Assembly (NCBI GenBank): GCA_035626155.1
Contig: DASPOF010000027.1
Location: forward strand, 10,685-74,684
Source of the DNA: Candidatus Binataceae bacterium
GTDB lineage: Bacteria; Desulfobacterota; Binatia; Binatales; Binataceae
Direction: 5' to 3'
DNA: 64,000 nucleotides
The position numbers were made by a program, and so were the translations under genes. Of this stretch, positions 26,145-52,444 are shown piece after piece. A model generated the notes under the pieces. That model was not told where the DNA came from. It ran no database searches and saw only the letters and a program-made list of their open reading frames with translations. Each line of letters opens with the position of its first letter. Within the stretch, counting starts at the first letter, position 1.

Positions 26145-27755
26145 ATGGCCGGCGAGCCGAACAGCCAGGATCGGCAGGCGAGCGATGGCGCGCTTCGCGG
26201 AAATCTGGCGCGCCGGTTCATCATCGGCTCGATGGTTGCGGCGGTGCCGGGCGTGGTCGCCCTGGGCATCGTGAATTTTTACTCGATTCGTTCCTTGACG
26301 ATCGTCAATCGCCAACTCGATGAGATCACGCTCTCGCTCGATGCCACGCGCGACCTGCAAACCGCGCTTATCCGAGTCGCCAGGAGTCCGGACGAATACG
26401 TCCTGCATCATTATAAGGGAGAGGAGAAGGAGTTCGACCAGGCGCTCAAGGTGGCGCAGCGCAAGCTGGTCGCGTGCTCATCGGCCCCGTGTCACGCGGC
26501 CACAAAATCTCCGCGCGAGATGGCGAGCCTGCTCGAACCCAAGCTCGAGATTTTGCGCCGCGATGGCGGGATGGTCTTCAGGACCGCATCGAGCCAGCCG
26601 CCCGCCGGCAGCAAGGAGATCGACAAGATCGACGACCTGCTCGGCGGCATCGACACCCAGTTCGGAGAGATGTCGGACGCCTTGCTGGGCCGGGTGGAGA
26701 AACTGCGCGAGCGCGCGCAGGTCGTGGATCGCCAGGCTTTGATGCTCACCGGGTTCGCGACCGCGGCGGTGCTCGTCTTTGGAGTTGCAAGCGCGCTGGT
26801 GCTCGCCAAGCGGGTGTCGCGCCCGCTCGAGAAGTTGCTGGTTGGCACGCGGCGGGTCAGGGGCGGTGAGTGGGACTATCGCGTTCAGATCGAGGATGCC
26901 GGGGAGATTGGAGAGCTCGCAACGTCGTTCAACGTGATGCTGAATGAAATCCAGCGCCATCGCGATCAGCTAAGGGATTACGGCCGCGTCCTCGAGGAGC
27001 GCGTGCGAGAACGCACCGATGAACTCAAGCGCAGCGACAAAGCGCTGCGCGAATCGGAGAAGCTCGCATCGGTCGGGTTGCTTGCCGCCGGTGTCGCCCA
27101 CGAGCTGAACAACCCGCTGACCAGCATCCTGATGAACGCAAACCTGATCATGGAGGACGTCGGAAAGGATTCGCCGCTTCTAGGCGATCTTAGGAAAATC
27201 GACACCGACGCCACTCGATGCAAGCGCATCATCGACGACCTGCGCACCTTCTCCCGCCCGCGCGACCTCAGGCTCGCTCCGTGCCGCGTCGAGACGCTGG
27301 TCGATCAGGCACTCGAGCTGTCCGACCATGAGCTGTCCGCGCGGGGAATCAAAGTGGAGACGCAGATCGCTCCGAACCTTCCCCAGCCGCTGTGGGACGG
27401 CGAGCGGATTACGCAGGTTCTCACGAACCTTTTTGTCAATGCAGCCCAGGCGATGAAAAACGGAGGAACTCTCACGGTCAGCGCGCAGCAGAGCGGGCAG
27501 TCGATCGCTCTGCAGGTACGCGACACCGGCGAAGGCATCCCGCAGCAATACCGCTCGCGCATCCTGGAGCCGTTCTTTACCACCAAGCCCACCGGCACCG
27601 GATTGGGCTTGTCCATCAGCTACGGCATCGTCCAGGAGCACGGCGGTTCGATCGAGATGGAAAGCATCACTCGGGAGGAGGCTGACCCGACGGGCAGGAC
27701 GGGCACCACAGTGAACATCCTGATCCCGCTTTCGGCGCCACAGGAGCAGGCATGA
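26145..27755 (+). CDS. Sensor histidine kinase (two TM helices, periplasmic sensor, HAMP, HisKA, HATPase)
   Basis: H-box [10 protein letters not shown] and N/G boxes ([29 protein letters not shown]). The periplasmic domain contains CSSAPCH. Confidence 0.85.
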
Positions 27756-29137
27756 GCGCGGCACCTACGGCACGCGTGTTGGTCGTCGACGACGAACCCA
27801 ACATCGGCGATTCGATCAAAAGAGCGCTTGAGCGCGTGGGTTACGCAGTCGAAGTGGTGCTCAGCGCCGAGGCCGCGCTGGCGCGGCTCGAACACAACCA
27901 AATCGACCTGGTGCTGTGCGACCTCAAGCTGCCCGGGATGGACGGGCTCGGGCTGCTCAAAACGATCGTCGAGTCGCGTCATCCCGCGGTGGTCGTGATG
28001 ATCACCGGTTACGCCTCGATCGAATCGGCGGTGGAATCGATCAAGCTCGGCGCCGCCGATTACGTCAGCAAGCCCTTCAATCCCGAGCAGATTCGGCACG
28101 TCGTCGCCAAGGCGCTCGCGCAGAAGCAGTTGATGGACGAAAACGCCTACCTCAAGGGCGAACTCAGGCAGTTGTTCGGCGAGCGGGTGGTGGTCGGCCA
28201 GAGCGTCGCGATGCAGGCGCTGTTCTCGACCGCGCAGAATGTCGCGGTGACCGACTCGAGCGTGCTCATCATCGGGGAGAGCGGGACCGGCAAGGAGGTG
28301 CTCGCGCGCTTCATCCATGCGCAAAGTCCGCGCAAGGATCGGCCGTTCGTGACGGTAAACTGCGCCGCGATTCCGGCCAATCTGCTGGAATCGGAGCTTT
28401 TCGGCCATCGCAAGGGCGCTTTCACGGGCGCAATCTACAGCCGGCGCGGCAGCTTCGAGCTGGCCGACGGCGGCACCTTGTTCCTCGATGAGATCGGAGA
28501 GATGCCGCTTGATATGCAGGCCAAAATCCTGCGCGCGCTCGAGGAGCGCCAGATTCAGCGCGTCGGCTCCGAGGAGCCCACCAACGTCGATGTGCGGATT
28601 ATCGTCGCGACGAACAAAAACCTCGAGCAGGAGGTCAAGGCCGGCCGGTTCCGCGACGACCTTTACTGGCGGCTCAACGTCGTCCAGTTGAAGATACCGC
28701 CGCTGCGTGAACGTCCCGAGGACATAATCCCGCTCGCCCGCCATTTCCTGGCGATGTACGCGCAGGAAATGAAAAAGGCGGTGACCGATTACTCCCCCGA
28801 GGTATTGCGGATATTCAATCGGCACGACTGGCCGGGCAACGTCCGCGAGTTGCGCAACACGGTTGAGCGCGCCGTTATCTTCGCGCACCCCGGCACGCCG
28901 ATCCGCCTGGCTGATTTGCCGCCCAGCCTGCGCGATGCACCCGCGCAGCCGGGCGCCACGGCCCCTGCCCCCTCCGGCCCTCTGCCTACGCTGCGCGAGG
29001 TCGAACTCGAGCACATCCGCCATGTCGTCGATGCGTGCGGCGGTAATCGAAGCCGCGCAGCGGAGATTCTCGGGATATCGGTGGTCACGCTATGGCGAAA
29101 GCTTGGCAAAGAGGGGATGGGAAACGAGCCAGATTGA
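27752..29137 (+). CDS. Sigma-54-dependent response regulator (NtrC/AtoC family: REC, AAA+ sigma-54 activation domain, Fis-type HTH)
   Basis: REC with D in [13 protein letters not shown], Walker [15 protein letters not shown] motif and C-terminal HTH ([19 protein letters not shown]). ATGA overlap with the kinase. Confidence 0.9.
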
Positions 29138-29328
29138 GGCGTCCCGCGAGCCATTACATTTTGTAATCGCTTCCCAGCCCCCATTACATCATGAAATGGG
29201 AATGGTTAATCCCTCCCGGCCCGCCTCGCTCCCGACCCGCTTGCCTTAATCCCTCTACCGCCTCCAAGTAGGCGAATTTCTTAGCTTTTTTCACCAATCA
29301 GGAACCCGGATGGGACATCCGCCTGGTA

Positions 29329-29344
29329 TGGCATCAGGCTTGCG
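29329..29344 (+). promoter_or_regulatory. Candidate sigma-54 (-24/-12) promoter TGGCAT-N5-TTGCG
   Basis: tGGcatcaggctTGCg has exactly 10 nt between the GG and GC dinucleotides. It lies about 50 nt upstream of the cupin ATG and directly downstream of the sigma-54 activator gene. Confidence 0.55.
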
Positions 29345-29392
29345 GATGTGTCTCGTGGAGTGGGCAAAGAGAGCCCGCGAGGAGAGCTTGAG

Positions 29393-29767
29393 ATGCAAAC
29401 CGCCGCCGCAGCCAGCCATCCGCTCAATCCAGGGTTGGCGTTCCGTTCCATCCGGCACCGTGGCGCTACGGTGGCGGTGTTCTGCGGGCGTGAGGGCGTC
29501 GAGGTCGCAACGGTGGAGATCGAGCCCGGCGCCACGGTCAGGGAACCGTATCTCTGGAGCGCTCGCTCCTGGCACCTGCTTCTGGAGGGCCAGGCGAGCG
29601 TTGAGCAGGGCGCCGAGCGATGCGACCTGCTGCGAGGCGAGTCGCTCTTTCTTGATGACGCACCGTACAGTCTTAGCAACCCGGCACCACAGCGGGCGAG
29701 GTTGCTGACTGTGCTTTTCCACACGGACGAGCGATCTGAACAACCTGAAGGAGGAGACAGACGATGA
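29393..29767 (+). CDS. Cupin-domain protein
   Basis: GAGGAGAG RBS and a cupin_2-like two-motif pattern (ATVREPYLWSARSWHLLLEGQASVE...GESLFL). Confidence 0.6.
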   Translation: MQTAAAASHPLNPGLAFRSIRHRGATVAVFCGREGVEVATVEIEPGATVREPYLWSARSWHLLLEGQASVEQGAERCDLLRGESLFLDDAPYSLSNPAPQRARLLTVLFHTDERSEQPEGGDRR

Positions 29768-30012
29768 TCGCGAGACAGAAATTCGTGATGTTTGGCATTG
29801 GGATTTTCATTTGGGTGAACGTGCTCACGATCGCGTTGAGCACCTGGCGCTTCGGTTACGTCGATGTGCGCACCGTCGCCCAGATGGGATTGATCGCGCT
29901 TCCGCCGCTCATCGTCGGAGCCTTCCTGCTCGCGCGCCCGGGCGCTGGTTCTCGGTTAACCAACCCTGAGCTCCCTGGCAGGGCAACCGTGGCCGTTAGG
30001 CATGCGAGGTAA
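29764..30012 (+). CDS. Small membrane protein (2 TM), hypothetical
   Basis: ATGA-coupled to the cupin; hydrophobic helices FVMFGIGIFIWVNVLTIAL and LIALPPLIVGAFLLA. Confidence 0.4.
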   Translation: MIARQKFVMFGIGIFIWVNVLTIALSTWRFGYVDVRTVAQMGLIALPPLIVGAFLLARPGAGSRLTNPELPGRATVAVRHAR

Positions 30013-30017
30013 GACCA

Positions 30018-30224
30018 ATGAACGCTGCAGCTATAAGAGAAACCCAAGGACGCCTGTATTTCCGTGGCGATAACGCAGCCGAGGCCAAGCCGATGAACGC
30101 GGCAGCCGCACCGGAACGCGAAGGCCGCCTGTTCTTCGTCGTGATCGACAGCCTGATCGCGCTCTCGCTCGTGGCCACCGCGGTATCGATCGCCGTGCTG
30201 TGCATCGCGGCAGCCTCGCTCTGA
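30018..30224 (+). CDS. Small membrane protein with duplicated N-terminal motif (MNAAA...GRLYF / MNAAA...GRLFF)
   Basis: GAGGT RBS 7 nt before the ATG and a C-terminal TM helix (VVIDSLIALSLVATAVSIAVLCIAAASL). Confidence 0.4.
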   Translation: MNAAAIRETQGRLYFRGDNAAEAKPMNAAAAPEREGRLFFVVIDSLIALSLVATAVSIAVLCIAAASL

Positions 30225-30336
30225 GCCTCGGCCGCGCCGATACGAGGCGCGGCAGCGGCGATATGAGCCAGGGATCGGGATTTGTGACGGTTAGTTGGTA
30301 CGGGCAATGAGGAGCGCTTGAGGAGAAGGAACTCAG

Positions 30337-31629
30337 ATGGACGCCAAGGCAAGTTACGAACTTGAGACCCCCCGCACGGTCGATCAACTTTGGGGCGCGG
30401 TCGTGGTGCTGGCCGGAATTTTCGGCTTCGCCATTTATATGTATCACTTCCAGTTCAGCGAGGGGCTCGGCGTGACCGGGCTCAACAAGCCCGTGTTCTG
30501 GGGCGTGTACATCGCCAACTTCATCTTCTGGGTTGGACTGAGCGCCGGCGGGATCGCGGTCTCTGCATTGGTCCATCTGATGGACAAGAAGGAGATGAAG
30601 CCGGTTGCGATCATGGCCGAGATCATGGCGGGAGGTTTTCTGATGGTCGCCGCCATGTTCATCATCATGGACCTCGGCCGCCCGACCAACATGTACCAGT
30701 TGTTCCTGCATCCGAATTTCACTTCACCGCTGCTGTGGGACGTGACGGTGGTGAACTGCTACCTGCTGCTGTGCCTGGCGCTGCTGTATTTCAGCGCGCG
30801 CGAGCACATCGTGCGCCGCCTCGGTCATAAGGCAGCGTGGAAGCCGATCGTTTTCCTGGTGTCGCTCGGGCGCACCAGCCTCTCTCCCGCCTCGGTGGAG
30901 CGCGACCATCGATGCCTGTGGGTGCTCGCCGTGATTTCGATTCCGGCGGCCGTTGCGCTTCACTCCGTGACCGCGTGGATCCTGGGGCTGGTTAAGGGAC
31001 AGCCGGGATGGAACACGCCGATACTCGCGCCGCTGTTCATCGCATCGGCGCTGGTGTCCGGGTTCGCCGCGGTGACGCTTGCGGTAATCGTTGCGCGCCG
31101 GCTGTTCGCCTTCCAGGTATCCGAGGAAGTCATACAGACCTTCGGCCGATATCTGGTCGTCGCGATTCTCATCCTGATGTACCTGTTTTTCAGCGAATTC
31201 CTTACGGTTGGTTATTCCGGGAGCCTGAGCCATATCGAGGTGTTCGATGAGATTCTGTTCGGCAGGTTCTCCGGGATTTTCTGGTTTGACGCGATAATTG
31301 GAATTCTCATCCCGCTCCTGTTACTGACCCTTCCATGGAACAAGTCGATGTTCACGGTGGGAGTAGCTTCGGCGCTGGTGGTGATTGGGGTGTTCGCCGA
31401 ACGGACCTATCTGCTGCTCCCATCGCTGATGAGGCCCAACAGCCTCACGGGCTCGGCTTCGTCCTACACGCCGACGGTGCTCGAATGGTCGCTGATGGCC
31501 GGCGCGTATGCCTTCGGTTGCCTGCTGTTCCTGGGCGGGATGGGCCTGATATTTGGCCGTCCGCCCCGCGCTGCACGCGAAGTGACCGAGGCAATTCCTG
31601 CGACCATGGTCACGGCGCCTCAGAACTGA
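30337..31629 (+). CDS. NrfD/PsrC-family polytopic membrane quinone-interacting subunit
   Basis: GAGGAGAAGGA RBS; about 10 TM helices with the NrfD pattern (GLNKPVFWGVYIANFIFWVGLSAGG..., PLLWDV). Confidence 0.8.
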   Translation: MDAKASYELETPRTVDQLWGAVVVLAGIFGFAIYMYHFQFSEGLGVTGLNKPVFWGVYIANFIFWVGLSAGGIAVSALVHLMDKKEMKPVAIMAEIMAGGFLMVAAMFIIMDLGRPTNMYQLFLHPNFTSPLLWDVTVVNCYLLLCLALLYFSAREHIVRRLGHKAAWKPIVFLVSLGRTSLSPASVERDHRCLWVLAVISIPAAVALHSVTAWILGLVKGQPGWNTPILAPLFIASALVSGFAAVTLAVIVARRLFAFQVSEEVIQTFGRYLVVAILILMYLFFSEFLTVGYSGSLSHIEVFDEILFGRFSGIFWFDAIIGILIPLLLLTLPWNKSMFTVGVASALVVIGVFAERTYLLLPSLMRPNSLTGSASSYTPTVLEWSLMAGAYAFGCLLFLGGMGLIFGRPPRAAREVTEAIPATMVTAPQN

Positions 31630-31821
31630 CGGCGCAGAGATGAGGCGGCCTTCCCCGCCGGCCGCGATTTGAGGTATCGATAACCTCGTCAGTACGCGGG
31701 GGAAGATTCCGGCCTGCCGCTCTCCAGAGAGCAGGCAGGCCGGAAGTTCAAAGAGAGAACCGAATCCGTACCGCCCCTCGTGTTTGGAGCATCGCCCAAG
31801 GTGTAAGGAGCATCGCCCAAG

Positions 31822-33360
31822 ATGGAACCGGAATCGAGCAACGGCGAGCCTGAAGAGGCTCGAGCCTCGAAGGAGGAACCAAAGGAAGCGGAATCAATTC
31901 GTCGGCCGCCTCTGAGCCTGCTGCGCAACTGGATAAGCCTCACCGGTGTGATTATCGGCGGCTTCACGCTGGCGAACATGCTGGCGCTCCTGCTCGCAGC
32001 GACCATCCTGGGGATGCGGCCGAGTCCTTACTTCGGCATCGTCGTTTACCTCTTGTTCCCCGCGATCGCGCTGGTCGGCCTGCTGCTGATCGTCGTGGGG
32101 ATGCTGTTCCAGCGCCGCCGGCTGCGCCGGCTCGCTTCGGCCGCGGCGGAGGCCCAGCAGGCGGCGTACTTGTTTCGCCACGGCGTTATGGCTCTGGGGG
32201 CCTTCTCGCTGATCTTCGCGATGGGGACAGCGCTGGCGAGCTATCACGGCTACCAGTTCACCGATTCGGCGACGTTCTGCGGTCAGACGTGCCACACCCC
32301 GATGAGGCCGGAATTCACCGCCTACCAGGACTCCCCGCACGCGCGGGTCGCCTGCGTGGGCTGCCACGTCGGACCCGGCGCCACCTGGTTCGTGCGCTCC
32401 AAGCTCTCGGGCCTCTACCAGGTCTATGCGGTCACGTTCGACAAGTACCCAAAACCGATCACGACCCCGATCAAGGAATTGCGCCCGGTTCGGTCTGCGT
32501 GCGAGCAATGTCACTGGCCGCAAAAGTTCTACGGCGCGCAGCTCAAGGCCTTCGCCCATTACGCATACGACGAGAAGAACACGCCCACCCGGATCGAGCT
32601 GTTAATCAAGACCGGAGGAGGAAGCGCCGAGTTCGGCCGCGCCACCGGAATCCACTGGCACATGAACATCGCCAACGAAGTCTGGTACGTGGCGTCAGAC
32701 AAGCAGGCCCAGGTGATTCCCTGGGTGAAAGTAAAGACCCCTGACGGAAGGACCACGGAGTATGTCGCCAAGGGCAGTACGCTCACCCCGAAGCAGATCG
32801 AGGCGATGCCGACCGAGGTGATGGACTGCGTAACCTGCCACACCCGCCCGTCCCATAAGTTCCGTTCGCCCGATCAGGCGGTGGATGAGGCGTTCGAGGC
32901 GGGCCAGATCGATCCTTCGCTTCCTTATTTGAAGAGGGAGGCGGTAAAGGCCCTGATTACCAAGTACGGCACGGTGGAAGAGGCGACCGAAAAAATCGCA
33001 ACCGCTCTCGACAGCTTCTACCACAACCAATATCCGCAGGTTTATGCGACCAAGTTTCCGCAGATAGAGTCCGCGGTCAGCACCATACAGCAGATCTACC
33101 AGAACAATATTTTCCCTGACATGCGCGTAGATTGGACGACGCATCAGGATAACATCGGCCACATGTATTACCCCGGATGTTTCCGCTGTCACGACGGGCA
33201 GCACGCCAGCGCCGACGGCCGGGTGATACCTGATGAATGCGAATCGTGTCACACGGTCCTTGCGACTCCCACCAGCGTCGCCGAGTTCAAGCATCCGATC
33301 GACCTCAAGAAGCTCGGCAGTTTGACTTGCAGCGCCTGCCACACCGGGCGCGTGCTGTAG
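31822..33360 (+). CDS. Membrane-anchored heptahaem c-type cytochrome (ImcH/NapC-NirT-like quinol dehydrogenase candidate)
   Basis: Three N-terminal TM helices then 7 CXXCH motifs (CGQTCH, CVGCH, CEQCH, CVTCH, CFRCH, CESCH, CSACH). AAGGAG RBS. Confidence 0.8.
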   Translation: MEPESSNGEPEEARASKEEPKEAESIRRPPLSLLRNWISLTGVIIGGFTLANMLALLLAATILGMRPSPYFGIVVYLLFPAIALVGLLLIVVGMLFQRRRLRRLASAAAEAQQAAYLFRHGVMALGAFSLIFAMGTALASYHGYQFTDSATFCGQTCHTPMRPEFTAYQDSPHARVACVGCHVGPGATWFVRSKLSGLYQVYAVTFDKYPKPITTPIKELRPVRSACEQCHWPQKFYGAQLKAFAHYAYDEKNTPTRIELLIKTGGGSAEFGRATGIHWHMNIANEVWYVASDKQAQVIPWVKVKTPDGRTTEYVAKGSTLTPKQIEAMPTEVMDCVTCHTRPSHKFRSPDQAVDEAFEAGQIDPSLPYLKREAVKALITKYGTVEEATEKIATALDSFYHNQYPQVYATKFPQIESAVSTIQQIYQNNIFPDMRVDWTTHQDNIGHMYYPGCFRCHDGQHASADGRVIPDECESCHTVLATPTSVAEFKHPIDLKKLGSLTCSACHTGRVL

Positions 33361-33373
33361 AGATCCGGCAGCT

Positions 33374-34120
33374 ATGAAAAGCTCGCTACCAAAGTTCCCC
33401 GAACAAATCGGAAGGCTGGCAATCGTAGCCGTTCTGCTGTTTGCAGCACTCTCGTGGATCTGGCTGGTGCTGCCGCCCTCTTTAAAGGAAAGAAGCTTGC
33501 AGCGCGAGGCGGCGACCGAGCGGGAGCAGGCCAAGGACCTCAAGTACGCAGGGGCGACGATCTGCGGCGCCTGCCACGTGCCGGAGTACAACACCAAGAA
33601 GACCGGCTACCATCGAAGCCTGTCCTGCGAGACTTGTCACGGACCGGCCAGGGCGCATACGCACAATCCGGCCAAGGTGAAGCCGGAGATACCTCAGAGC
33701 CGGAACTTTTGCCCGCTCTGCCACGCTTACGATCCGTCTCGCCCGCTGGGCTTCCCGCAAATCAATCCGGTGGCCCACAACCCGATGAAGCCGTGCGTGA
33801 CCTGCCACAACCCGCACGATCCGAAGCCGCCGCAGACGCCTCAGAGCTGCGCGGCCTGCCATCAGAGCATCATGCGCGCCAAGGCGGTGTCTCCTCACGC
33901 GCTTCTCGAGTGCACTACCTGCCACGTGGCTCCCGAGGAGCACCGGGTCGATCCCCTGAGCACGCAGGTCAGCAAGCCGAGCAGCCGCGAATTCTGCGGC
34001 CAGTGTCATAGCAAGGACTCGAAGATTCCCGGACCGCCGAAGATCGATCTCGCGAGTCACCACGAAAAGTATCTCTGCTGGCAATGCCATTATCCGCATA
34101 TGCCGACGGTTTACCGATGA
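33374..34120 (+). CDS. Membrane-anchored octahaem c-type cytochrome
   Basis: One N-terminal TM helix and 8 CXXCH motifs in 248 aa. Confidence 0.8.
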   Translation: MKSSLPKFPEQIGRLAIVAVLLFAALSWIWLVLPPSLKERSLQREAATEREQAKDLKYAGATICGACHVPEYNTKKTGYHRSLSCETCHGPARAHTHNPAKVKPEIPQSRNFCPLCHAYDPSRPLGFPQINPVAHNPMKPCVTCHNPHDPKPPQTPQSCAACHQSIMRAKAVSPHALLECTTCHVAPEEHRVDPLSTQVSKPSSREFCGQCHSKDSKIPGPPKIDLASHHEKYLCWQCHYPHMPTVYR

Positions 34121-34129
34121 GGCTGGCTT

Positions 34130-34879
34130 ATGAATAGAAGAGCCTTCCTGAGAACGCTGGGCGCCACCATCGTGCGGGCCGGGGTATTCCTCGGACTCTC
34201 GCGCGCCGGCGCGGTAGGAGCCGCCATCGAGGGCGCGGCGCCGGAAGAGAAGCCGCGCTACGGCATGGCGATCGATATCGACCGGTGCATCGGGTGCGCC
34301 CGCTGCATGGAAGCGTGCAAGACCGAAAATAACGTCCCGCAGGAACCGTTCTACTTTCGCACCTGGGTGGAGCGCTACGTCATCAAGACCGACGAAAGCC
34401 TGACCGTCCAGAACGTCGGGATGGAGAAGTACCAGATCGCGGAACCGATCAACGAGTGGGATATCCTGCGCAGCTTCTTCGTTCCCAAGCTGTGCAACCA
34501 GTGCGACCATCCGCCCTGCACGCAGGTGTGCCCGGTAGGCGCGACGTTCTCCACCGAGGAGGGCGTGATCCTCATCGACTCGACCCGCTGTATCGGTTGC
34601 GGCTACTGCATCCAGGCCTGTCCCTACGGCGCCCGCTATCTCCGACCGGATACCAAGACCGCGGACAAATGCACCTTCTGCTACCATCGAATCACCAAAG
34701 GACTGCTGCCAGCCTGCGTGGAAGTGTGCCCGACGCAAGCGAGGGTGTTCGGCGAGCTGAACACCAGCGCGAGCCCTCTCACCCGCTTCAAGCGCATGGA
34801 GATGATCCATGTGCTTAAGCCCCATCTGAATACGGAGCCCAAAGTTTTCTACGCGAATCTGGACGGGTTAGTCAGATGA
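34130..34879 (+). CDS. Tat-exported 4x[4Fe-4S] ferredoxin-type subunit (PsrB/NrfC/HybA-like)
   Basis: Twin-arginine signal (NRRAFLRTLGA) and four Cys clusters (CIGCARCMEAC, CNQCDHPPCTQVCP, CIGCGYCIQACP, CTFC...CVEVCP). Confidence 0.85.
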   Translation: MNRRAFLRTLGATIVRAGVFLGLSRAGAVGAAIEGAAPEEKPRYGMAIDIDRCIGCARCMEACKTENNVPQEPFYFRTWVERYVIKTDESLTVQNVGMEKYQIAEPINEWDILRSFFVPKLCNQCDHPPCTQVCPVGATFSTEEGVILIDSTRCIGCGYCIQACPYGARYLRPDTKTADKCTFCYHRITKGLLPACVEVCPTQARVFGELNTSASPLTRFKRMEMIHVLKPHLNTEPKVFYANLDGLVR

Positions 34880-36072
34880 CCCACAACGAAATGTTCGAGC
34901 TGCTCAAGCAGGTCACCGGCCACATCTATCCCAACGAGATCGAGATGCGGTGGTCGATTCTGATCGTCCTGTACCCCTATCTCACGGGATTGGTGGCGGG
35001 AGCTTTCATCCTGGCCTCGCTCGTCGAGGTGTTCAACGTAAAGGAAGTGCAGCCGACTTACCGGCTGGCGCTGCTGACGGCGTTGTCTTTTCTGCTCGTC
35101 GCGCCGCTGCCCCTGCTGTGCCATCTCGGGCGGCCGGAGCGGGCCTACGAGGTGTTGCTGACGCCGAACCTGACCTCGGCGATGGCGATGTTCGGCTTCG
35201 TATATGCCTGGTACCTGATGGTGGTCCTGCTGCTGGAGATATGGTTTGGCTACCGCAAGGATCTGATCGTGTGGGCTAAGCAGGAAAAATTCCCGATGAA
35301 GTGGATTCATCGGGTGATTAGCCTGTTCTCGACGGATATCAGCGAGGAAGCGGTCCGATTCGATCACAAGGCGGTAAAGTTCATCACCGCGATCGGTATC
35401 CCGTCCGCTTTTCTGCTCCACGGCTATGTCGGATTCATCTTCGGATCGGTCAAGGCGAATCCGTGGTGGAGTAGCGTCTTGATGCCGATCGTGTTCCTGT
35501 TCTCCGCCATCGTGTCGGGAATCGCGATGGTGCTGCTGCTGTACATGGTCATTATTCCGATGCGGAAGGAACATATCGACATGAACTGCGTCGATCGGAT
35601 CGCGTCGTTTTTGTTTTACGCGGTAATCGTCGACTTCTCTCTCGAGCTGCTCGATTTCATCCACCGTCTCTATGAGAGCGAGGAATCGATCAAGATCCTG
35701 TCCGCGCTGATCATCAACAAGCTCTTCATCAGCCTGGTGGTGATCCAGGTCCTGCTCGGGATGCTGGTGCCGCTCGCGGTCCTGGTGGTGATACAGCTTT
35801 TCAGCGTCGAGGAGGAACTGAGACGGCTTCTGTACTTCGTCACGGCGATCCTGATTCAAGTGGGGATCTTCAGCGTCCGATGGAACGTCGTCATCGGGGG
35901 CCAGATGTTTTCCAAGAGCTTCCTTGGCTTGACGACCTATAAGATGGAGCTGCTCGGAGTCGAGGGTCTCGCGACAGCGCTCGGGCTGTTGATCCTGCCG
36001 TTCATCATCCTGGCGGTTCTGATGAAGATCTTTCCGCCGTGGGGCGCGCCAGGACAGGTCCAGGAAGCGTAG
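34876..36072 (+). CDS. NrfD-family membrane subunit (second copy)
   Basis: ATGA-coupled to the FeS gene; polytopic. Confidence 0.75.
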   Translation: MTHNEMFELLKQVTGHIYPNEIEMRWSILIVLYPYLTGLVAGAFILASLVEVFNVKEVQPTYRLALLTALSFLLVAPLPLLCHLGRPERAYEVLLTPNLTSAMAMFGFVYAWYLMVVLLLEIWFGYRKDLIVWAKQEKFPMKWIHRVISLFSTDISEEAVRFDHKAVKFITAIGIPSAFLLHGYVGFIFGSVKANPWWSSVLMPIVFLFSAIVSGIAMVLLLYMVIIPMRKEHIDMNCVDRIASFLFYAVIVDFSLELLDFIHRLYESEESIKILSALIINKLFISLVVIQVLLGMLVPLAVLVVIQLFSVEEELRRLLYFVTAILIQVGIFSVRWNVVIGGQMFSKSFLGLTTYKMELLGVEGLATALGLLILPFIILAVLMKIFPPWGAPGQVQEA

Positions 36073-36326
36073 CGCCCTTTCGATTGGGGCGCACATCCCC
36101 GTAGCGCATCGGCGTTCGTACTTCAGAACAGCAAGTCCGCACCACGTCGAGCTTGAATGCCGGCACCTCGGGAATCGAACGAGATGACTTAGGCCGCGAG
36201 TGCCGGTGCGATAAAGCGATGTTGCGGCGGGGCGGGAAAATCAGGCTTGCCCTGATGGAGCCAATCGACGCGGCCGGTCGCGCGCGGTGAGAACGGGACG
36301 GCGCGAGCGGGAGGCCGGAGCGAACA

Positions 36327-37568
36327 ATGGTGGATGCATCAGGGCGGGCGCTGAGCGGCCTTGCGCACATCGCGCGGGCTATTGCGGCAATCTTGCTATT
36401 CGGCGTCGCGGCTGCGCAGGCCGGTCCCGCACAGGCGCCGGTCGATTGTCTATCCTGCCATAATGCGCAGCCCCCCGCCGCGGAGGCGGCCGGCGCGGTC
36501 AGCTTTTACGTGAACAAGGAGCTGTTCCACTCCTCGGTTCATTCGGCCTTCGGTTGCACCGCTTGCCATTCCGACATTCATGGCTTTCCCCATCCCAAGC
36601 CGGTGCGGCAGGTCTCATGCTCCGGGTGCCACCCGCAACAAACTTCGGCGTTCGCCGGCAGCATTCACGCGGCCGCCGCGGCCGAAAAGAAGCGCTCCTT
36701 TCCGGCTTGCCTGGATTGTCACGGGAACCCTCATGGCGTGCGCGCGATGACCGACCCGAAGTCGCGAGTTTACCCTCTCAACCTCCCGCGCACCTGCGGC
36801 TCGTGTCACGGAAGCCCCGAGCTTGCCAGGAAATACGGCTTTCCAAACGTGTACCCGCTTTACATGGACTCGATTCACGGCTTGGCACTGACCAGCGATG
36901 GCCTGCTGGTGGCCGCCACGTGCGCGAGTTGCCACGGCGCGCACGACATCGCCGACAAGAACGATCCCAGGAGCCGGACCTTCCGCACCAATGTTCCTGC
37001 GACTTGCGGCAAGTGCCATGCAGGCATCCAGGCCGATTACCGCGCCGGTGTTCATGGAGCGAAGATGGCCGCCGGGGACGCGAATGCTCCGGTGTGCACG
37101 GATTGCCATACCGCGCATCAGATCGCGCACGTGGACATCACGAACTGGCAAGTCAAAACCGTCGCCACTTGCGGCAACTGCCACAAGGAAAAACTGCAAA
37201 GCTACCGCGATACCTTCCATGGCCAGGTGACCGAACTCGGCTTCGTCGCCACCGCGCGATGCTGGAGTTGCCATGGCCCGCACAAAATTCTTCCCGCCTC
37301 GAATCCGCAATCCACAGTCGCAGCGCCAAATCTCTCCGCCACCTGCAGCAAGTGTCACCGCGGCGTAACCGCAAGCTTTGTCACTTACGAGCCCCATCCC
37401 GATGCGCGCGATCGGCAGCGCAATCCGGGCCTGTATTATTCCGCCAACTTCATGAACCTGCTGCTGTTGGGGGTCTTCGTTTTCTTCGGGGTGCACACGC
37501 AGCTTTGGCTTACGCGGTCGTTGATCAGGGGACGAAAACAGGATCCGCGGCAACCGCCACGTTTCTGA
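36327..37568 (+). CDS. 11-haem c-type cytochrome with signal peptide and C-terminal TM anchor (CbcL/CbcA-like haem domain)
   Basis: 11 CXXCH motifs and a C-terminal hydrophobic helix (NLLLLGVFVFFGV). GGGAGG RBS. Confidence 0.8.
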   Translation: MVDASGRALSGLAHIARAIAAILLFGVAAAQAGPAQAPVDCLSCHNAQPPAAEAAGAVSFYVNKELFHSSVHSAFGCTACHSDIHGFPHPKPVRQVSCSGCHPQQTSAFAGSIHAAAAAEKKRSFPACLDCHGNPHGVRAMTDPKSRVYPLNLPRTCGSCHGSPELARKYGFPNVYPLYMDSIHGLALTSDGLLVAATCASCHGAHDIADKNDPRSRTFRTNVPATCGKCHAGIQADYRAGVHGAKMAAGDANAPVCTDCHTAHQIAHVDITNWQVKTVATCGNCHKEKLQSYRDTFHGQVTELGFVATARCWSCHGPHKILPASNPQSTVAAPNLSATCSKCHRGVTASFVTYEPHPDARDRQRNPGLYYSANFMNLLLLGVFVFFGVHTQLWLTRSLIRGRKQDPRQPPRF

Positions 37569-38417
37569 ATGACAATGGAGCAAGTGGTGGAGAATAACGA
37601 TTCAGAGCGCTACTATTTCCGATTTACACTCGGTCAGCGCTACCTGCACGGCTTGTTGATCACGACGTTCCTGGCTCTTGCATGCACCGGGATGACGCTG
37701 CGGTTCAGCGAAACGCTCTGGGCTAAGCGGTTCGCGGAAGCGGCGGGCGGATTCACTGCGATTCTCTCGATACACAAGCTCTGCGCGGTGATCATCACGG
37801 CGGGCTTCATCTATCATGTCGCTGAAATCGTCGTCAGGGTGATGATGAAGGGAGAGCGAGGACTCCTGTGGGGGCCGAACTCGATGCTTCCGCAGCCGAA
37901 GGACGCGCTGGATCTTCTTCAGCACCTGCGCTGGTTTCTCTGGATGGGTCCGCCGCCCGAATTCGATCGTTTTACCTATTGGGAGAAGTTTGACTATTGG
38001 GCGGTGTTCTGGGGAATGGCGGTTATCGGAATCACTGGATACATGATGTGGTTCGGGCCGTTCTTCGCCCGCTTCGTCCCGGGTTACGTCCTGAATATCG
38101 CGCTCCTGATCCACGGCGAGGAAGCCTTGCTCGCGGTTTGGTTCATCTTCATGGTGCATTTCTTCAATTCCCATCTGCGCCCCGGGAAATTCGCGTTCGA
38201 CTCGGTGATGTTTACCGGGCGGCTGACCGCCGAGCGCTACGAGCACGAACATCTGCTGGATTATTCGCGCTTGGGCGAGTCGGGCGCGCTCGAAAGCCTG
38301 CGCACCGACGCGCCTCCGCTTTGGCTGAAAAATTTCTCCCGCGTGATCGCAATTGTCGCGGTCAGCATCGGCTTTTCTTTGCTGGTGCTGACGCTGATCG
38401 CATTCTGGAGCCGATAG
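37569..38417 (+). CDS. Dihaem b-type cytochrome (FdnI/HyaC-like membrane subunit)
   Basis: Immediately adjacent to the 11-haem gene, 4-5 TM helices with conserved His (RYLHGLL, HKLCAVI, HGEEALL, HFFNSH). Paralog of 45858-46559. Confidence 0.75.
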   Translation: MTMEQVVENNDSERYYFRFTLGQRYLHGLLITTFLALACTGMTLRFSETLWAKRFAEAAGGFTAILSIHKLCAVIITAGFIYHVAEIVVRVMMKGERGLLWGPNSMLPQPKDALDLLQHLRWFLWMGPPPEFDRFTYWEKFDYWAVFWGMAVIGITGYMMWFGPFFARFVPGYVLNIALLIHGEEALLAVWFIFMVHFFNSHLRPGKFAFDSVMFTGRLTAERYEHEHLLDYSRLGESGALESLRTDAPPLWLKNFSRVIAIVAVSIGFSLLVLTLIAFWSR

Positions 38418-38517
38418 GCGCCCGCGCTGACAACGCCGGCTTGACTCTGACCCCGCCTCAGGCGGAGATAGCCGAAGTAAAGCTGACCCACTTTCGCCAG
38501 GCGACGGGGTGGAGTGC

Positions 38518-38537
38518 GAGGAGGGCTGCCCCTCCTC
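38518..38537. terminator. Perfect 8-bp GC hairpin (gaggagggctgcccctcctc) between convergent genes
   Basis: Sits between the cytochrome b gene (+) and the sulfatase gene (-). No strong U-tract. Confidence 0.35.
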
Positions 38538-38588
38538 GCCAGTCCGTCAGAGAGCCTCGCCGATCGATGGCTCTTCTCGAGCGCCTCA

Positions 38589-41105
38589 CTACTGAGTGGG
38601 TGTGTCGTGCGCCGCGGCGACCGCCCGCTCCACTACCTCCCGTTGATCGGCGGTCAGCTGCTGCGGCCCGAGCCTGTAGGTCACTTTATTGATCGTGCCG
38701 CCGAATTTGAACGGCAGCTTGTAGCTCTCATCGACAGGCGTACGGGTGTCCATCCCGATGTCGAGCGACTCGTCGATCGACATCAGGAACGGAATGGTGT
38801 GCTCCATTTTCTGTTGCGAGAGCGCCTTGCCGTCGACGCTGAGGACGCCCGTTCCGCCCTTGCCTATCCCCGGCCCGTCGTACTTGAAGTCGAACGAGAT
38901 CGTGTGCTTACCCCGCGAGAGCGACCTGCCGAGCCAATCGTGGGCGCCGACACCGCCCTCGAACCGGTAACGTTTCAGGTCGAGCAGGTTGTAGACGAAC
39001 ACGGGCTTGCCCTTGAGCAAGTACATGCCGTAGCCCCCGAACCGGCCGCCCATCGTCGCGATCATGCCCTCGGTGCCCTCCTTCGGGACCGTGATTTCGG
39101 CGGTGATCGTGTAATCCCGGTCGAGCAAGCTCGGCGCATTAGCGACCGGAATGCCGACGTTCTCGCCCGTATAGCTGAATTCCGTCCGCCCAGCAGTCCC
39201 GCTCGGTCGCGCCGTCAGCAAACGCGGAAGAACCGAGTTGTCCAGCGGGAAAACCTGATACTTGTTAGCCTCCGCGACGAACAGCGCCTGCAGCTCTTTT
39301 AACCTGTCGGGATACTTAGCCGCGAGGTCATCGTTCTGCGAGTAGTCTTGGGCTATGTTGTAGAGCTCCCACTTGTATTGCTCGACCGGCGGCAGCGGCT
39401 TCAATCCTACAAGCCATGGCGGTTCGGGTGGGGTCGTGCAGGCGTACCACCCATCGTGATAGATGCCGCGGTTGGCGAACATCTCGAAGTACTGTGTGTC
39501 GCGTTTCGACGGCACCTCGGCGTTCGCCTTGTCGAATGTGTACACCATGCTCACGCCCTCAACGGGCTTCTGCTTGATGCCGTCGACCATGTCCGGCGCC
39601 GGGATCCCGGCGGCTTCCAGGATCGTCGGCACAATGTCGATCACGTGATGAAACTGTTGGCGAATGCCGCCCGGGTCGTTGATGTGGCCCGGCCACGAGA
39701 TCACCATACCCTGCCTGGTGCCGCCGAAGTGCGAGGCGATCTGCTTCACCCATTTGAAGGGCGTGTCGAACGCCCACGCCCATGGGACCGCCATGTGGGC
39801 GTAGGTCTGGTCGGAACCCCAGGACTCATAGTAACGAAGGTATTCGACCTCCGGCAGCTCCAGGACGCCGTTGTAGACGGTCATCGTGTTCGGCGTGCCC
39901 ATCATCGACCCTTCCGAACTGGTCCCGTTGTCGCCTTCAATGTAGATGATGAGCGTGTTGTCGAGCTTGCCCATGTCCTCGACTGCCTGGATGACGCGTC
40001 CGATCTCGTAGTCGGTATACGCTGCGTAGGCCGCGAACACGTCGGCCTCGCGAATGGTGATCTTCTTCTTCACCGCGGAGAGCGAGTCCCAGTGCGGCAG
40101 ATCATCCGGCCACGGGGTGAGCTGAGTATTCGGCGGAATCACGCCGAGCCGCTTTTGGTTGGCGAAGATATTTTCGCGCAACTTCTCCCAACCCTGATCG
40201 AACAGGTGCATCGCAACGACCTTGTCGATCCATTCCTTGGTCGGCTGATGCGGAGAGTGCGTCGCGCCGGGTACGTAGTAGACGAAGAAAGGCTTTTCGG
40301 GCGCCGCCGCGTCGAGCGCCTTTATGTAGCGGATCGCGTCGTCAGCCATGTCGGTAATAAGGTTGTAGCCAGGCTTGCCGATCCATGGATAGACGGGTGT
40401 GTGGTCGCGGAAGAGGTAGGGCGTCCACTGGTCGGACTCGCCGCCCATGAAGCCGTAGAAGTACTGGAACCCCATCCCGCTCGGCCACTGGTCGAACGGC
40501 CCCGCCGCGCTGTACAGATAGGAAGGCGTGTTATGGTTCTTTCCGAACCACGCTGTTGCGTAGCCGTTGTCTGAGAGGATCCTGCCAATCGTCGCATTCT
40601 CGGGCCCGATGATCGAGTCGTAACCCGGGAAGCCGGTCGACAGTTCGCTAACCTGGCCGAAGCCGACCGCGTGGTGGTTTCGGCCAGTGATGATCGCCGC
40701 GCGCGTGGGCGAGCACAGCGCTGTGGAGTGGAACTGCGTATAGCGCAGGCCGGCCTTGGCCAGACGGTCCAGGGTCGGCGTAGGAATGACGCCGCCGAAA
40801 GTGCTACTCACGCCGTAGCCGGCATCGTCGGTCATGATCAGCAGCACGTTCGGCGCGCCCTTCGACGGCACCACCGTCGGTGGCCACCACGGCTTCGAGT
40901 CCTTGGCGTCCTCCTTGATTACACCGCCGAACGCCGGCGGGGGCGGCGGCAGTTGCTTCCCGTCGATGGTAGTCGTCGCTCCGGGGGAACCTGGTGTGCC
41001 GGTGATCTGCTGCGCCATCGCCGCGGCTGGAACCAACGCGAAAGCGCTGAGCGCCATCCGAAAAACAAGACGTGTTCTTGTGCGATAACTGCGATTCCGG
41101 TCCAT
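38589..41105 (-). CDS. Arylsulfatase (sulfatase family, Cys-type FGly site CSPTR), exported
   Basis: Signal peptide plus the sulfatase signature (LCSPTRAAIITGRNHH, GKNH). ATG at 41105 with a GGGGAGG RBS. About 838 aa. Confidence 0.85.
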   Translation of the reverse strand: MDRNRSYRTRTRLVFRMALSAFALVPAAAMAQQITGTPGSPGATTTIDGKQLPPPPPAFGGVIKEDAKDSKPWWPPTVVPSKGAPNVLLIMTDDAGYGVSSTFGGVIPTPTLDRLAKAGLRYTQFHSTALCSPTRAAIITGRNHHAVGFGQVSELSTGFPGYDSIIGPENATIGRILSDNGYATAWFGKNHNTPSYLYSAAGPFDQWPSGMGFQYFYGFMGGESDQWTPYLFRDHTPVYPWIGKPGYNLITDMADDAIRYIKALDAAAPEKPFFVYYVPGATHSPHQPTKEWIDKVVAMHLFDQGWEKLRENIFANQKRLGVIPPNTQLTPWPDDLPHWDSLSAVKKKITIREADVFAAYAAYTDYEIGRVIQAVEDMGKLDNTLIIYIEGDNGTSSEGSMMGTPNTMTVYNGVLELPEVEYLRYYESWGSDQTYAHMAVPWAWAFDTPFKWVKQIASHFGGTRQGMVISWPGHINDPGGIRQQFHHVIDIVPTILEAAGIPAPDMVDGIKQKPVEGVSMVYTFDKANAEVPSKRDTQYFEMFANRGIYHDGWYACTTPPEPPWLVGLKPLPPVEQYKWELYNIAQDYSQNDDLAAKYPDRLKELQALFVAEANKYQVFPLDNSVLPRLLTARPSGTAGRTEFSYTGENVGIPVANAPSLLDRDYTITAEITVPKEGTEGMIATMGGRFGGYGMYLLKGKPVFVYNLLDLKRYRFEGGVGAHDWLGRSLSRGKHTISFDFKYDGPGIGKGGTGVLSVDGKALSQQKMEHTIPFLMSIDESLDIGMDTRTPVDESYKLPFKFGGTINKVTYRLGPQQLTADQREVVERAVAAAHDTPTQ

Positions 41106-41683
41106 TATTGCCTCCCCACAGATTGCGGTCTGTTGTCGTCGCAACTCAGCCGTTAAGCGATCCACCTCGGCGCGGATCCTTGATCGTCTCCCACCGAGGG
41201 ACCACGGAGCCGACGGGCCCGAGCGACTATCTCGGGCGCCGCACGGTCAACTGTGTGCCTGGCGCCATAAATGGAACGACAAAGGATTGAAAATAATCGC
41301 ATGCTGCGTCAAGAGGACTCCGAATCGGTTGCAGCCGCTCACGATCCAGCTCGACGTAAGTCGCCCGCCTTCATCCCAGCGTCGCGACGAACACCGCCAA
41401 TCAGTTTTCAATCGGCAACCGGGATCAGTTTTGCACCGGCGGCAACAACGCAACGCTCGCCGTTTTTTTTCGGTCCGCGCCGAGTTCGTTTTCCGCCTGG
41501 GAACTCAGGCGGTTGGCGGCCCCGTCTAGGGTGAAATTCCCGCCGGCCTCGGACGTTTTTCCCGCCTGCGCTCAAAACCTTTTCCGGGCTCCCTCCGGCG
41601 CCTGCCCAATTAACTAAATCGTTCGAAGCGCCTATGTTGAGAGTCAGAACAAGACAGGAAATGAGTTCAGGAGGTGGACAGAA

Positions 41684-43882: not shown

Positions 43883-43884
43883 GG

Positions 43885-45747: not shown

Positions 45748-45857
45748 TGTCCCGTATCACCGCCATCGGGGCAGCGCCGCCGGCGGCAGGGTGATTGTCT
45801 GACCGATCACGCGCGAGAGGCGGTGACATACTTGCGCCGGCCGCCGGCGTATCGCGC

Positions 45858-49948: not shown

Positions 49949-50317
49949 TTACTTCTGGCAGAAACTCCGGACGTAGCCGACCAGGCCCTTGATTTCGGTG
50001 TCATCCAGCCCGTCGGCGTAGCCGGCCATCTTCGGGCTAAGGTCGGCCGCCGGGCCGCCTTCCTTGATCACCTTGAACACGACATCATCGGTGACCCTCG
50101 CCATGCGCGCGCAATCGGTCAGGTCGCCGGGCTTGGTGGCGAGCGTTGAGGCGGCCGGGCCGTCGCCCCGTCCGGATGCTCCGTGGCACTTGACGCACAG
50201 GGTTCTGTAGTTGTCCTTTGCGGCGGCGAGGTCCTCGGCGCGCGCCTGGAATGCGCCGAGCGCAAATACAAACGCCACGAACGTGAGAATACTTAGTCGA
50301 ACAATCAGCGATTTCAT
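49949..50317 (-). CDS. Monohaem class-I c-type cytochrome (c553-like), exported
   Basis: Signal peptide, a single CVKCH motif, and a distal Met region. Paralog of 55802-56185. Confidence 0.8.
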   Translation of the reverse strand: MKSLIVRLSILTFVAFVFALGAFQARAEDLAAAKDNYRTLCVKCHGASGRGDGPAASTLATKPGDLTDCARMARVTDDVVFKVIKEGGPAADLSPKMAGYADGLDDTEIKGLVGYVRSFCQK

Positions 50318-50401
50318 TTCAGCGGTCCTGATTATTTCCCGGCCTTCAACCCCGCTCGATCGAGCGGCTCTTTAAGCTGATGTCCATGATGCATCGAGGG
50401 C

Positions 50402-52424: not shown

Positions 52425-52444
52425 CTGTGCTTCTCCAGTTCCCC

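Follow-up and report, generated by a model that had tools for sequence, protein, structure and literature searches.

What does a run of seven genes do that carries 26 haem c motifs, two NrfD-family membrane proteins and an iron-sulfur (FeS) protein, when no catalytic subunit is encoded among them? The question is raised by a 64,000-nucleotide stretch of DNA from Candidatus Binataceae bacterium (assembly GCA_035626155.1, contig DASPOF010000027.1, positions 10,685 to 74,684), in which the genes that we call g1 to g7 occupy positions 30337-38417. The whole stretch is referred to as the window, and its G+C content is 58-70%. An earlier note, made from the sequence of this DNA, had read the seven genes as a single complex with a new arrangement of subunits. 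Our analysis argues for a different answer. The block is best explained as a tandem array, in a soil Binataceae bacterium, of four independently conserved couplers (modules M0-M3) between the quinone pool and periplasmic haem or FeS proteins, and not as one new enzyme; we put the probability of this reading at roughly two in three. M0 is an operon that ends in g1, M1 is g2, M2 comprises g3-g5 and M3 comprises g6-g7. The coordinates of all features are collected in Table 1.

All seven open reading frames (ORFs) lie on the + strand and have a high third-position G+C. The earlier note had them right in number, direction and position, its seven domain assignments were borne out by Pfam and motif profile searches, and its figure of 26 haems agrees with the total of haem c motifs counted across g1-g7. 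The motif counts are kept in homologues (eight in 9/9 for g3, 11 in 11/11 for g6 and the 6+1 pattern of g2 in 60/88), so the motifs are not there by chance. Seven contigs of the same organism, assembled independently and each with an identical ImcH protein, carry the order g1-g7, which is also shared with one relative (L089 plus L119) at 83-93% identity. One protein with 100% identity bears the annotation of a Candidatus Binataceae metagenome-assembled genome. Misassembly is therefore excluded. As the earlier note had observed, no molybdopterin or other catalytic subunit is encoded within 30337-38417, though a molybdopterin/FeS/NrfD complex lies at 50402-55395 on the - strand and directly adjoins these genes in relatives. 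The limits of the block were drawn too narrowly: the seven genes themselves were correct, but what precedes them, namely a candidate promoter, regulator genes and three small genes, was missed, and the true unit begins about 1 kb upstream of 30337, at the candidate sigma-54 promoter of M0.

Do the seven genes form one unit? Across a comparison set of about 125 related loci (given here by their numbers, L001 and so on), the four modules can be found by themselves, differently ordered or beside different partners. The closest Binatus genomes (L001 and L081-L083, with 66-69% ImcH identity) have the genes for ImcH, the 11-haem cytochrome and cytochrome b side by side, with neither g1 nor g3-g5. 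In L084 the order ImcH, 8-haem cytochrome, FeS protein, NrfD, 11-haem cytochrome and cytochrome b is that of the window, with no g1 in front, and in other Binataceae (L085-L087) M2 comes before ImcH, the 11-haem cytochrome and cytochrome b. M2 stands alone in L088 (Zixibacteria RBG-1), and in the Ignavibacteriales (L122/L123) it is followed by genes for a Rieske/cytochrome b pair and multihaem cytochromes. L121 (Methylomirabilales) runs from the cupin-like gene, sm1 and g1 of M0 through a Band_7 gene to M2, a trihaem cytochrome and ImcH. One unclassified metagenome contig has a fused multihaem cytochrome-cytochrome b gene, followed by a multihaem cytochrome, cytochrome b, ImcH, M2, a Rieske protein and cytochrome b. 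M0 and M2 are each seen without ImcH, which appears to contradict an obligate link to it. The Band_7 (SPFH/stomatin-like) gene recurs among these loci, after cytochrome b in L081-L084 and after g1 in L121 (4604-5389), and is absent from the array in the window.

These rearrangements bear directly on the idea that g1-g7 make up one new seven-subunit quinol oxidase, in which ImcH and the bc-type cytochromes would be joined to a scaffold like that of alternative complex III (ACIII) or Hmc, with two NrfD proteins and one FeS protein. All seven genes point the same way, those of g2-g5 and of g6-g7 overlap or are only a short distance apart, and the same modules are recurrently co-located in Binataceae, in Methylomirabilales and in the unclassified metagenome contig. 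In addition, g1 and g5 share the 10-helix ActC-like fold, of which ACIII has two copies alongside a single FeS module. What speaks against a single complex is that the module order is permuted among relatives and that the modules occur without one another. The long gaps of the block fall at the g1/g2 and g5/g6 junctions, the g5 family has at least 8,000 candidates as against 600 matches for g1 at E<=1e-20 (a different threshold), and most contigs with g1 homologues have no FeS gene adjoining g1. We regard a single seven-subunit complex as very improbable, and the earlier note's proposal of one complex is not upheld.

By its sequence, g2 of M1 has every feature that defines the ImcH family, namely three helices, a CX3CH plus six CX2CH motifs and a length of 495-519 amino acids (PMC6295460). 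Hydropathy places its three N-terminal helices at residues 38-66, 67-99 and 120-140, the CX3CH lies by the membrane domain at C153, and the CXXCH motifs are at 178, 227, 336, 453, 473 and 503; the length of g2 falls within the family range. A NapC/NirT/NrfH-like region was recognized by PF03264 over residues 124-209, by the NrfH model TIGR03153 (2.3e-14) and by the NrfH structure 2j7a_C (1.2e-4). The comparison with ImcH of Geobacter sulfurreducens (GSU3259) was made through these published features, and the likeness to it that the earlier note had seen is correct on that basis. The G. sulfurreducens protein is a characterized electroneutral menaquinol oxidase with an unusual His/Gln haem-1 pocket (10.1101/2023.05.03.539133). 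Q200, K194 and Y209 of g2, which are invariant or nearly so in an alignment of homologues that does not contain GSU3259, would correspond to the published Q179, K173 and Y188 plus 21, and the same offset holds for the haem-1 His (H158 vs H137); this is an offset in numbering, not an alignment. The family of g2 is very large: at least 7,879 homologues, out of 8,000 candidates that were scored, have E <= 1e-10. The setting of the gene is different. The imcH gene of Geobacter has no such array around it and its expression is constitutive, whereas the g2 gene sits in an array behind a sigma-54 operon. A 2018 survey found no mtrAB or mtoAB adjoining any imcH (PMC6295460); in contrast, imcH of the Binataceae relatives adjoins MtrAB-like genes, with an MtrA-like decahaem cytochrome and an MtrB_PioB porin within a few kb of it in L081 (4431-7781), L082 (5289-8584) and L084 (2465-5907). 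The interaction partners of ImcH were raised as an open question in the original ImcH paper (PMC4251993).

A recurrent neighbour of imcH is the kind of cytochrome encoded by M3. We surveyed the imcH neighbourhoods of 80 species-representative genomes that hold the closest ImcH homologues. A protein with a g7-like domain is encoded near or adjacent to imcH and co-directional with it in 52 of these genomes, and in 46 of the 52 it is one fused protein of 630-860 amino acids with 9-13 (usually 11) CXXCH motifs. In Acidobacteriota and other phyla (L002-L074; L003 7322-9907, L004 81-2219) the gene for this fused CXXCH/cytochrome b protein, which has a CbcL-like architecture, is usually found immediately upstream of imcH. 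As in CbcL and CbcBA, g6-g7 combine a multihaem c domain with an FdnI/HydC-like dihaem b and have no other cofactor subunit, and as in CbcBA a separate c gene, whose product has a His-bearing C-terminal helix, precedes the b gene. CbcL has one His each in helices 1-3 and a formate-dehydrogenase-like pair in helix 5 (10.1101/2021.04.15.440034). When the g6 helix is taken as helix 1 and the boundaries are set by hydropathy, g6-g7 likewise have six helices in total, with the pattern H390; H27; H69; none in helix 4; H182 and H197. His390 of g6 is invariant in 8 homologues, and H27, H69, H83, H182 and H197 of g7 are invariant in 63. Differences from both Geobacter systems are also clear. CbcL is one polypeptide with nine haems, whereas g6 and g7 are split and g6 has 11, and g7 carries one extra His, H83. 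CbcB has four helices and three His and CbcA seven haems, as against five helices and five His in g7 and 11 CXXCH in g6. Expression of cbcBA depends on sigma-54 and BccR, and hypothetical genes lie upstream of it (10.1101/2021.04.15.440034); in the window there is a sigma-54 activator in the neighbourhood and a conserved element, but these stand where the array begins, 7 kb upstream. The comparison with the Geobacter proteins (GSU0274, GSU0593-0594) was one of architecture, and only in this sense are g6-g7 called CbcL/CbcBA-type; in the same sense the earlier note's comparison with Cbc-type inner-membrane cytochromes was correct as well.

The start of g7 needs a small correction. The adjacent stop-start at 37568/37569 from which the earlier note had argued coupling is present in the sequence as TGA/ATG, but an independent gene call starts g7 at GTG 37587, which is probably the true start and gives 276 amino acids, as in homologues. 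A tblastn search with g7 against plasmids gave no match. We rejected g7 as a five-helix WX3HX13H protein of the PCC3/PCC4 clusters (PMC5566968), since by eye its HX13H and HX14H lie on other helices, with no Trp. A paralogous bc pair is found on the - strand of the window. It consists of a 9-haem cytochrome (46556-47620), whose C-terminal helix bears a His, and a cytochrome b (45861-46559) that is coupled to it by ATGA, is 32% identical to g7 and lacks the last helix of g7; this pair is closer to the CbcBA layout. Behind the pair come genes for a HAMP/HisKA_3 kinase and a GerE-type regulator (43226-47620 in all, - strand). In L086/L087 the gene calls join the paralogous cytochrome b and the kinase into one protein (857 amino acids; PF01292, HAMP and HisKA_3), which suggests a quinone- or redox-sensing kinase.

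The genes of M2, for an 8-haem cytochrome, an FeS protein and an NrfD protein, were together in every context examined, and the ATGA at 34876, by which the earlier note had coupled g4 to g5, is indeed there. Judged from its sequences, the conservation of g5 is unusual for a membrane subunit. The best 120 matches in its family are all 74-89% identical and come from Zixibacteria, Ignavibacteria, Bacteroidota, Nitrospinota, Methylomirabilales, Acidobacteria and others. The proteins are nonetheless distant from the named families. No match to PF03264 was found for g3, and NrfH reached only 5.3e-4 in NCBIfam. The nearest relative of g4 is PsrB (2vpw_B, 2.7e-51), with the TtrB, DsrO and NrfC models all under their cut-offs. 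For g5 there was no sequence match in the PDB, and thus none to a solved NrfD protein, and its scores against the NrfD, DsrP, HybB and HmcC models were 55 bits or less; its AlphaFold2 model, with a predicted local distance difference test (pLDDT) score of 74.9, matches ActC at a template-modelling (TM) score of 0.66-0.72. No name for the 8-haem/FeS/NrfD family was found in the literature searched, the coverage of which is incomplete here and below, and no link to the module was found in the literature on Melioribacter and Ignavibacterium.

Several known systems have a similar layout. Cbc4 (CbcSTU) consists of an anchored c-type cytochrome, a 4x[4Fe-4S] protein and an integral membrane subunit (10.1101/2025.04.14.648717), and g3-g5 have the same three parts, but CbcS is a NapC/NirT-type tetrahaem cytochrome whereas g3 has eight haem motifs and is not of the NapC/NirT type. 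By sequence, g4-g5 resemble SirCD and NrfCD, in which a polyferredoxin exported by the twin-arginine translocation (Tat) pathway is paired with NrfD and no catalytic subunit is needed. Work cited in PMC11434368 showed that SirCD of Shewanella (FeS plus NrfD) can take the place of CymA, so that an FeS/NrfD pair can serve periplasmic cytochromes as a quinol dehydrogenase of general use. NrfBCD and NhcABC(D) of Desulfovibrio differ in having a pentahaem NrfB and a soluble nine-haem NhcA in place of the anchored 8-haem g3. The earlier note recognized the arrangement of the block as no named complex, and would have taken a match to a well-characterized named complex as a refutation. The modules come close to that, for named systems of like architecture can be set beside each of them (ImcH; Cbc4/SirCD/NrfCD; CbcL/CbcBA).

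The earlier note had also likened the block to assemblies of the ACIII/Hmc/Dsr type, with two NrfD proteins and one FeS protein. The resemblance is found at the level of single subunits. The fold of g1 is that of ActC (TM score 0.80), g5 is a more distant version of it, and g4 resembles the FeS module of ActB, QrcC and PsrB. However, the block encodes neither a molybdopterin-like ActB/QrcB domain nor ActA, ActD or ActE; g1 is ActC-like only as a single subunit, and g1 and g4-g5 belong to mutually independent modules. The DsrK/HmcF FeS protein, the DsrM/HmcE NarI-type cytochrome b, the trihaem DsrJ and the 16-haem HmcA of DsrMKJOP and HmcABCDEF are all absent from the block, and the DsrP, DsrO, HmcB and HmcC scores of its proteins are all under the curated cut-offs. 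Since M0 and M2 occur independently, the proposed assembly is not supported, and an ACIII-like unit of g1, g4 and g5 was dropped on the same ground.

At the head of the array stands M0. A metagenome scan with g1 returned 31 loci. In 21 of them the cupin-like gene, sm1 and g1 follow in this order, and 14 also have the kinase and/or the sigma-54 regulator upstream; the cupin-like gene is called in independent assemblies and is syntenic in 21 loci. No family match to sm1 was found in profile searches. The element TGGCAY-N5-TTGC is kept just 5' of the cupin-like gene in 13 of 14 related intergenic sequences, in which the flanks diverge; in five of those loci it sits about 10 nucleotides past the BLAST-derived ORF start. 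The conservation of the -24/-12 element between differing flanks is good comparative evidence that M0 (29329-31629) is a sigma-54 operon, which would be controlled by the adjacent kinase and activator.

The protein at the end of this operon, g1, matches chain C of ACIII (ActC) at 1e-27 by sequence. Its AlphaFold2 model (pLDDT 82.7, predicted TM score 0.84) gave Foldseek TM scores of 0.80 to ActC (8k9e_C), about 0.6 to ActF and 0.40 to PsrC. The gene that follows g1 varies among the loci. It is ImcH in the window, in L119 and in L120 (79%), and in about 20 other contigs no ImcH stands behind the g1-type operon. Homologues of about 60% identity are followed by genes for an MtrA-like decahaem cytochrome and an MtrB_PioB porin (Pfam 1.4e-93), for a trihaem and an 8-haem cytochrome, or for an EB_dh protein and a NapC-type decahaem cytochrome. 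The first of these arrangements is seen in L103 (3076-6284) and L105 (4582-7721), where an operon of sigma-54 regulator, cupin-like protein, small membrane protein and NrfD leads into the decahaem and porin genes; this NrfD-plus-porin-cytochrome unit is compact, with no FeS protein or NapC/ImcH-type cytochrome in view. In the Candidatus Binatus soli-like contigs L090, L113 and L091, g1 (73%) is convergent with an operon for monohaem cytochrome c, NrfD, FeS and molybdopterin proteins and with the genes for cytochrome b and the 11-haem cytochrome.

One reading of this pattern is that g1 and its sigma-54 operon provide an undescribed, cofactor-less quinone-coupling subunit that docks multihaem cytochromes directly. 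Its partners may be ImcH here, and MtrA/MtrB, NapC-type decahaems or trihaems elsewhere. The recurring set of ImcH, the 8-haem/FeS/NrfD module, a bc-cytochrome and g1 would then be a conserved, regulated toolkit for extracellular electron transfer. We hold this to be doubtful. If it is true, a step that is otherwise electroneutral could gain proton coupling or regulation through g1, and the toolkit would span the soil phyla Binatota, Methylomirabilota, Acidobacteriota and Ignavibacteriota, which are not known as metal respirers. The literature searched gave no description of a sigma-54-controlled lone ActC-like NrfD before diverse multihaem cytochromes and no link between NrfD and MtoA/MtoB.

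A second respiratory complex lies on the - strand of the window at 49949-56332. It is an ACIII/Qrc-like hybrid with separate molybdopterin and FeS subunits and no ActF, and it is syntenic with ImcH or g1 genes in L001, L084, L090/L113 and L115. Its presence allows another reading of g1, as a regulated second NrfD (ActF-like) for this complex that stands beside ImcH only through a local inversion. The complex has ActA-, molybdopterin-, FeS- and ActC-like subunits and does not have an ActF-like second NrfD, and g1 is closest to its NrfD (50402-51778, 35% identity, compared with 28% to g5) and to ActC. The g1 module is convergent with or adjacent to the complex in L090/L113, L091, L084 and L115, and in L112 a 64% homologue of g1 comes directly 3' of the molybdopterin and FeS genes. 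Against this, ImcH directly follows g1 in the window, L119 and L120, g1 is part of an operon-like array with M2 and ImcH in L121, and in about 15 other contigs multihaem cytochromes or MtrAB come after g1 with no molybdopterin complex in view. We consider the ActF-like role unlikely.

The four couplers of the array need not all be transcribed together. The earlier note had pointed to short gaps as a sign of co-expression. The gaps within g2-g4 are indeed 13 and 9 bp, but those at g1/g2 and g5/g6 are 192 and 254 bp, whereas the equivalent junctions span 24-100 bp in relatives (27 bp in L084 for g5/g6). The hairpin in the g1/g2 gap could act as a partial terminator, or else in processing or stabilization; its left arm is also kept in L119. 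No convincing sigma-54 or sigma-70 promoter and no U-tailed intrinsic terminator was found in either gap. In the g5/g6 spacer, the 11-nucleotide ATCAGGCTTGC at 36239-36249 repeats, letter for letter, the -12 half of the sigma-54 element before the cupin-like gene (29333-29343); this copy is without a GG at -24, the two sites are not alike beyond the 11 nucleotides, and the gap has no well-matching GG-N10-GC element. We infer that co-transcription could still run across both long gaps.

Then, how would an array of couplers operate? As the modules have no substrate-converting subunit yet contain the parts for electron transfer between quinone and haem, they can be read as parallel quinol:cytochrome c couplers. 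In M1, by analogy with G. sulfurreducens ImcH, g2 would oxidize menaquinol at a periplasm-facing site by haem 1 and pass the electrons along its seven haems in an electroneutral step. In M2 quinol would be oxidized on the NrfD protein g5, with electrons moving through the four putative [4Fe-4S] clusters of g4 to the membrane-anchored 8-haem g3. In M3 the FdnI-like dihaem b protein g7 would move electrons across the membrane to the periplasmic 11-haem g6. These parallel quinol routes, probably for different potentials or energy yields, would lead into a periplasmic multihaem network. Candidates for it in the window are the monohaems (49949-50317 and 55802-56332), the 11-haem protein (58298-60130) and the trihaems (63253-63950). 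The network would continue to outer-membrane conduits, with a candidate at 56521-63950 in the window and the MtrA/MtrB_PioB genes by imcH as candidates in relatives. The couplers would be expressed at least partly from the sigma-54 promoter, in response to the adjacent sensor kinase. The general idea of an electron link from quinone to periplasm, which the earlier note had put forward, is in our judgement correct.

Electrons might also travel in the opposite direction, entering the quinone pool from a donor outside the cell or in the periplasm (Fe(II), minerals, reduced cytochromes), or be divided between oxidases and reverse electron flow. The genes of relatives adjoin MtrA/MtrB_PioB-type genes, class-I monohaem cytochromes and a Rieske/cytochrome b complex, and the second complex of the window has QrcB/QrcC-like as well as ActA/ActC-like subunits. 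Qrc is the cytochrome c3:menaquinone reductase of sulfate reducers. Homologues of CbcL/MtoC occur in both Fe(III) reducers and Fe(II) oxidizers, whereas ImcH homologues had been reported from Fe(III) reducers only (PMC6295460). Since the characterized ImcH, CbcL, CbcBA and SirCD are all quinol oxidases, reversed flow appears possible but somewhat unlikely.

Several points weigh against the array of four quinol-oxidizing couplers. The sequence by itself does not decide the direction of electron flow, whether for this reading or for the reverse. The likeness to ImcH, CbcL, CbcBA and Cbc4 rests on published family features and architecture, and no NCBIfam equivalog model is above its cut-off for any of the seven proteins, which therefore have no curated name. 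The role of g1 is the weakest part of the model, because NrfD proteins carry no cofactor and g1 is without an FeS partner of its own. The recurrent co-location of the modules in three phyla would also be expected of a physical supercomplex and leaves room for one. Lastly, because the 192-bp gap holds a strong hairpin and the 254-bp gap is unexplained, the block may consist of two or three transcription units.

Downstream of the array, an 858-amino-acid sulfatase-family gene (38589-41165, - strand) is convergent with g7 and parts the array from the downstream cytochrome genes, with a GC-rich hairpin between the two genes at about 38517-38540. The possible outer-membrane conduit farther downstream is encoded on the - strand, and no porin family was detected within 56521-63950.

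Table 1. Positions in the window of the genes and elements of the array and of the neighbouring respiratory genes.
Feature	Position	Strand	Unit	Evidence or remark
Sensor histidine kinase (HAMP, HisKA, HATPase_c), first of the two-component pair before the g1 operon	26145-27755	+	regulators of M0	Pfam; synteny with the g1 module kept in 14 related contigs
Sigma-54-dependent response regulator (receiver, Sigma54_activat, HTH_8), NtrC/BccR type	27752-29137	+	regulators of M0	Sigma54_activat 4.3e-74; 43-92% identical and syntenic in related loci
Terminator-like hairpin, 3' of the regulator gene and 5' of the sigma-54 promoter	29259-29274	+		consensus scan, pattern match only
Candidate sigma-54 -24/-12 promoter TGGCATcaggcTTGC, 50 nucleotides 5' of the cupin-like gene	29329-29343	+	M0	pattern match TGGCAT-N5-TTGC
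Cupin-like cytoplasmic protein, 124 amino acids, first M0 gene, ATGA overlap with the next	29393-29767	+	M0	AraC_binding_2 6e-5, Cupin_2 2e-3, both under Pfam cut-offs
sm1, small membrane protein, 82 amino acids, two hydrophobic helices	29764-30012	+	M0	37-69% identity upstream of g1 homologues
sm2, small membrane protein, 68 amino acids, one helix	30018-30224	+	M0	only in closer relatives
g1, ActC-type NrfD-family membrane protein, cofactor-less, last M0 gene	30337-31629	+	M0	PF03916 1.9e-51
GC-rich hairpin without U tract in the 192-bp g1/g2 gap	31702-31749	+		-35.2 kcal/mol, z -4.97 vs shuffles
g2, ImcH-type inner-membrane 7-haem cytochrome, 512 amino acids	31822-33360	+	M1	three transmembrane helices, CX3CH plus six CXXCH; PF03264 1.6e-8
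g3, N-terminally anchored 8-haem cytochrome c	33374-34120	+	M2	one N-terminal helix, 8 CXXCH
g4, Tat-exported 4x[4Fe-4S] protein, PsrB/NrfC/TtrB/DsrO type	34130-34879	+	M2	RRAFL motif, 16 Cys in four cluster motifs, Fer4_11 1.9e-25
g5, divergent NrfD-family membrane subunit, ATGA overlap with the g4 stop	34876-36072	+	M2	PF03916 3e-39
g6, periplasmic 11-haem cytochrome	36327-37568	+	M3	signal peptide, 11 CXXCH, C-terminal helix with His390
g7, FdnI/HydC-like cytochrome b, five predicted helices	37569-38417	+	M3	PF01292 28.1 bits (cut-off 30.1); FdnI 1e-3; alternative start GTG 37587
Monohaem cytochrome c	49949-50317	-	second complex	
ActC-like NrfD	50402-51778	-	second complex	6lod_C 1.5e-72
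QrcC-like FeS protein	51723-52424	-	second complex	311 bits
Tat molybdopterin subunit	52445-55039	-	second complex	QrcB model 295 bits, ArrA 1e-47, PsrA 1e-39
5-haem ActA-like cytochrome	54817-55395	-	second complex	8k9e_A 8e-27
Monohaem cytochrome c	55802-56332	-	second complex	
557-amino-acid protein	56521-58194	-	candidate conduit	no family match
11-haem protein with MtrC/MtrF domain, 610 amino acids	58298-60130	-	candidate conduit	
686-amino-acid protein	61214-63274	-	candidate conduit	no family match
Two overlapping trihaem genes	63253-63950	-	candidate conduit	

The genes for ImcH, CbcL, CbcBA and Cbc4 are scattered over the Geobacter genome, and the proteins serve at differing redox potentials. 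Beyond Geobacter, imcH usually has a bc-cytochrome gene as its partner, which encodes 9-13 and most often 11 haem motifs, and this pair is repeatedly joined by the unnamed, extremely conserved 8-haem/FeS/NrfD module and by the sigma-54-controlled lone NrfD. What is new is the ImcH/11-haem-bc pair, the 8-haem/FeS/NrfD module and the lone sigma-54 NrfD, which form a mosaic of known kinds of coupler and no new enzyme class. No link between Binatia and extracellular electron transfer was found in the literature searched; in the Binataceae this set of modules stands beside MtrAB-like conduits. The finding would provide concrete candidates for the partners of ImcH and a marker gene set for predicting mineral electron exchange in uncultured soil phyla.

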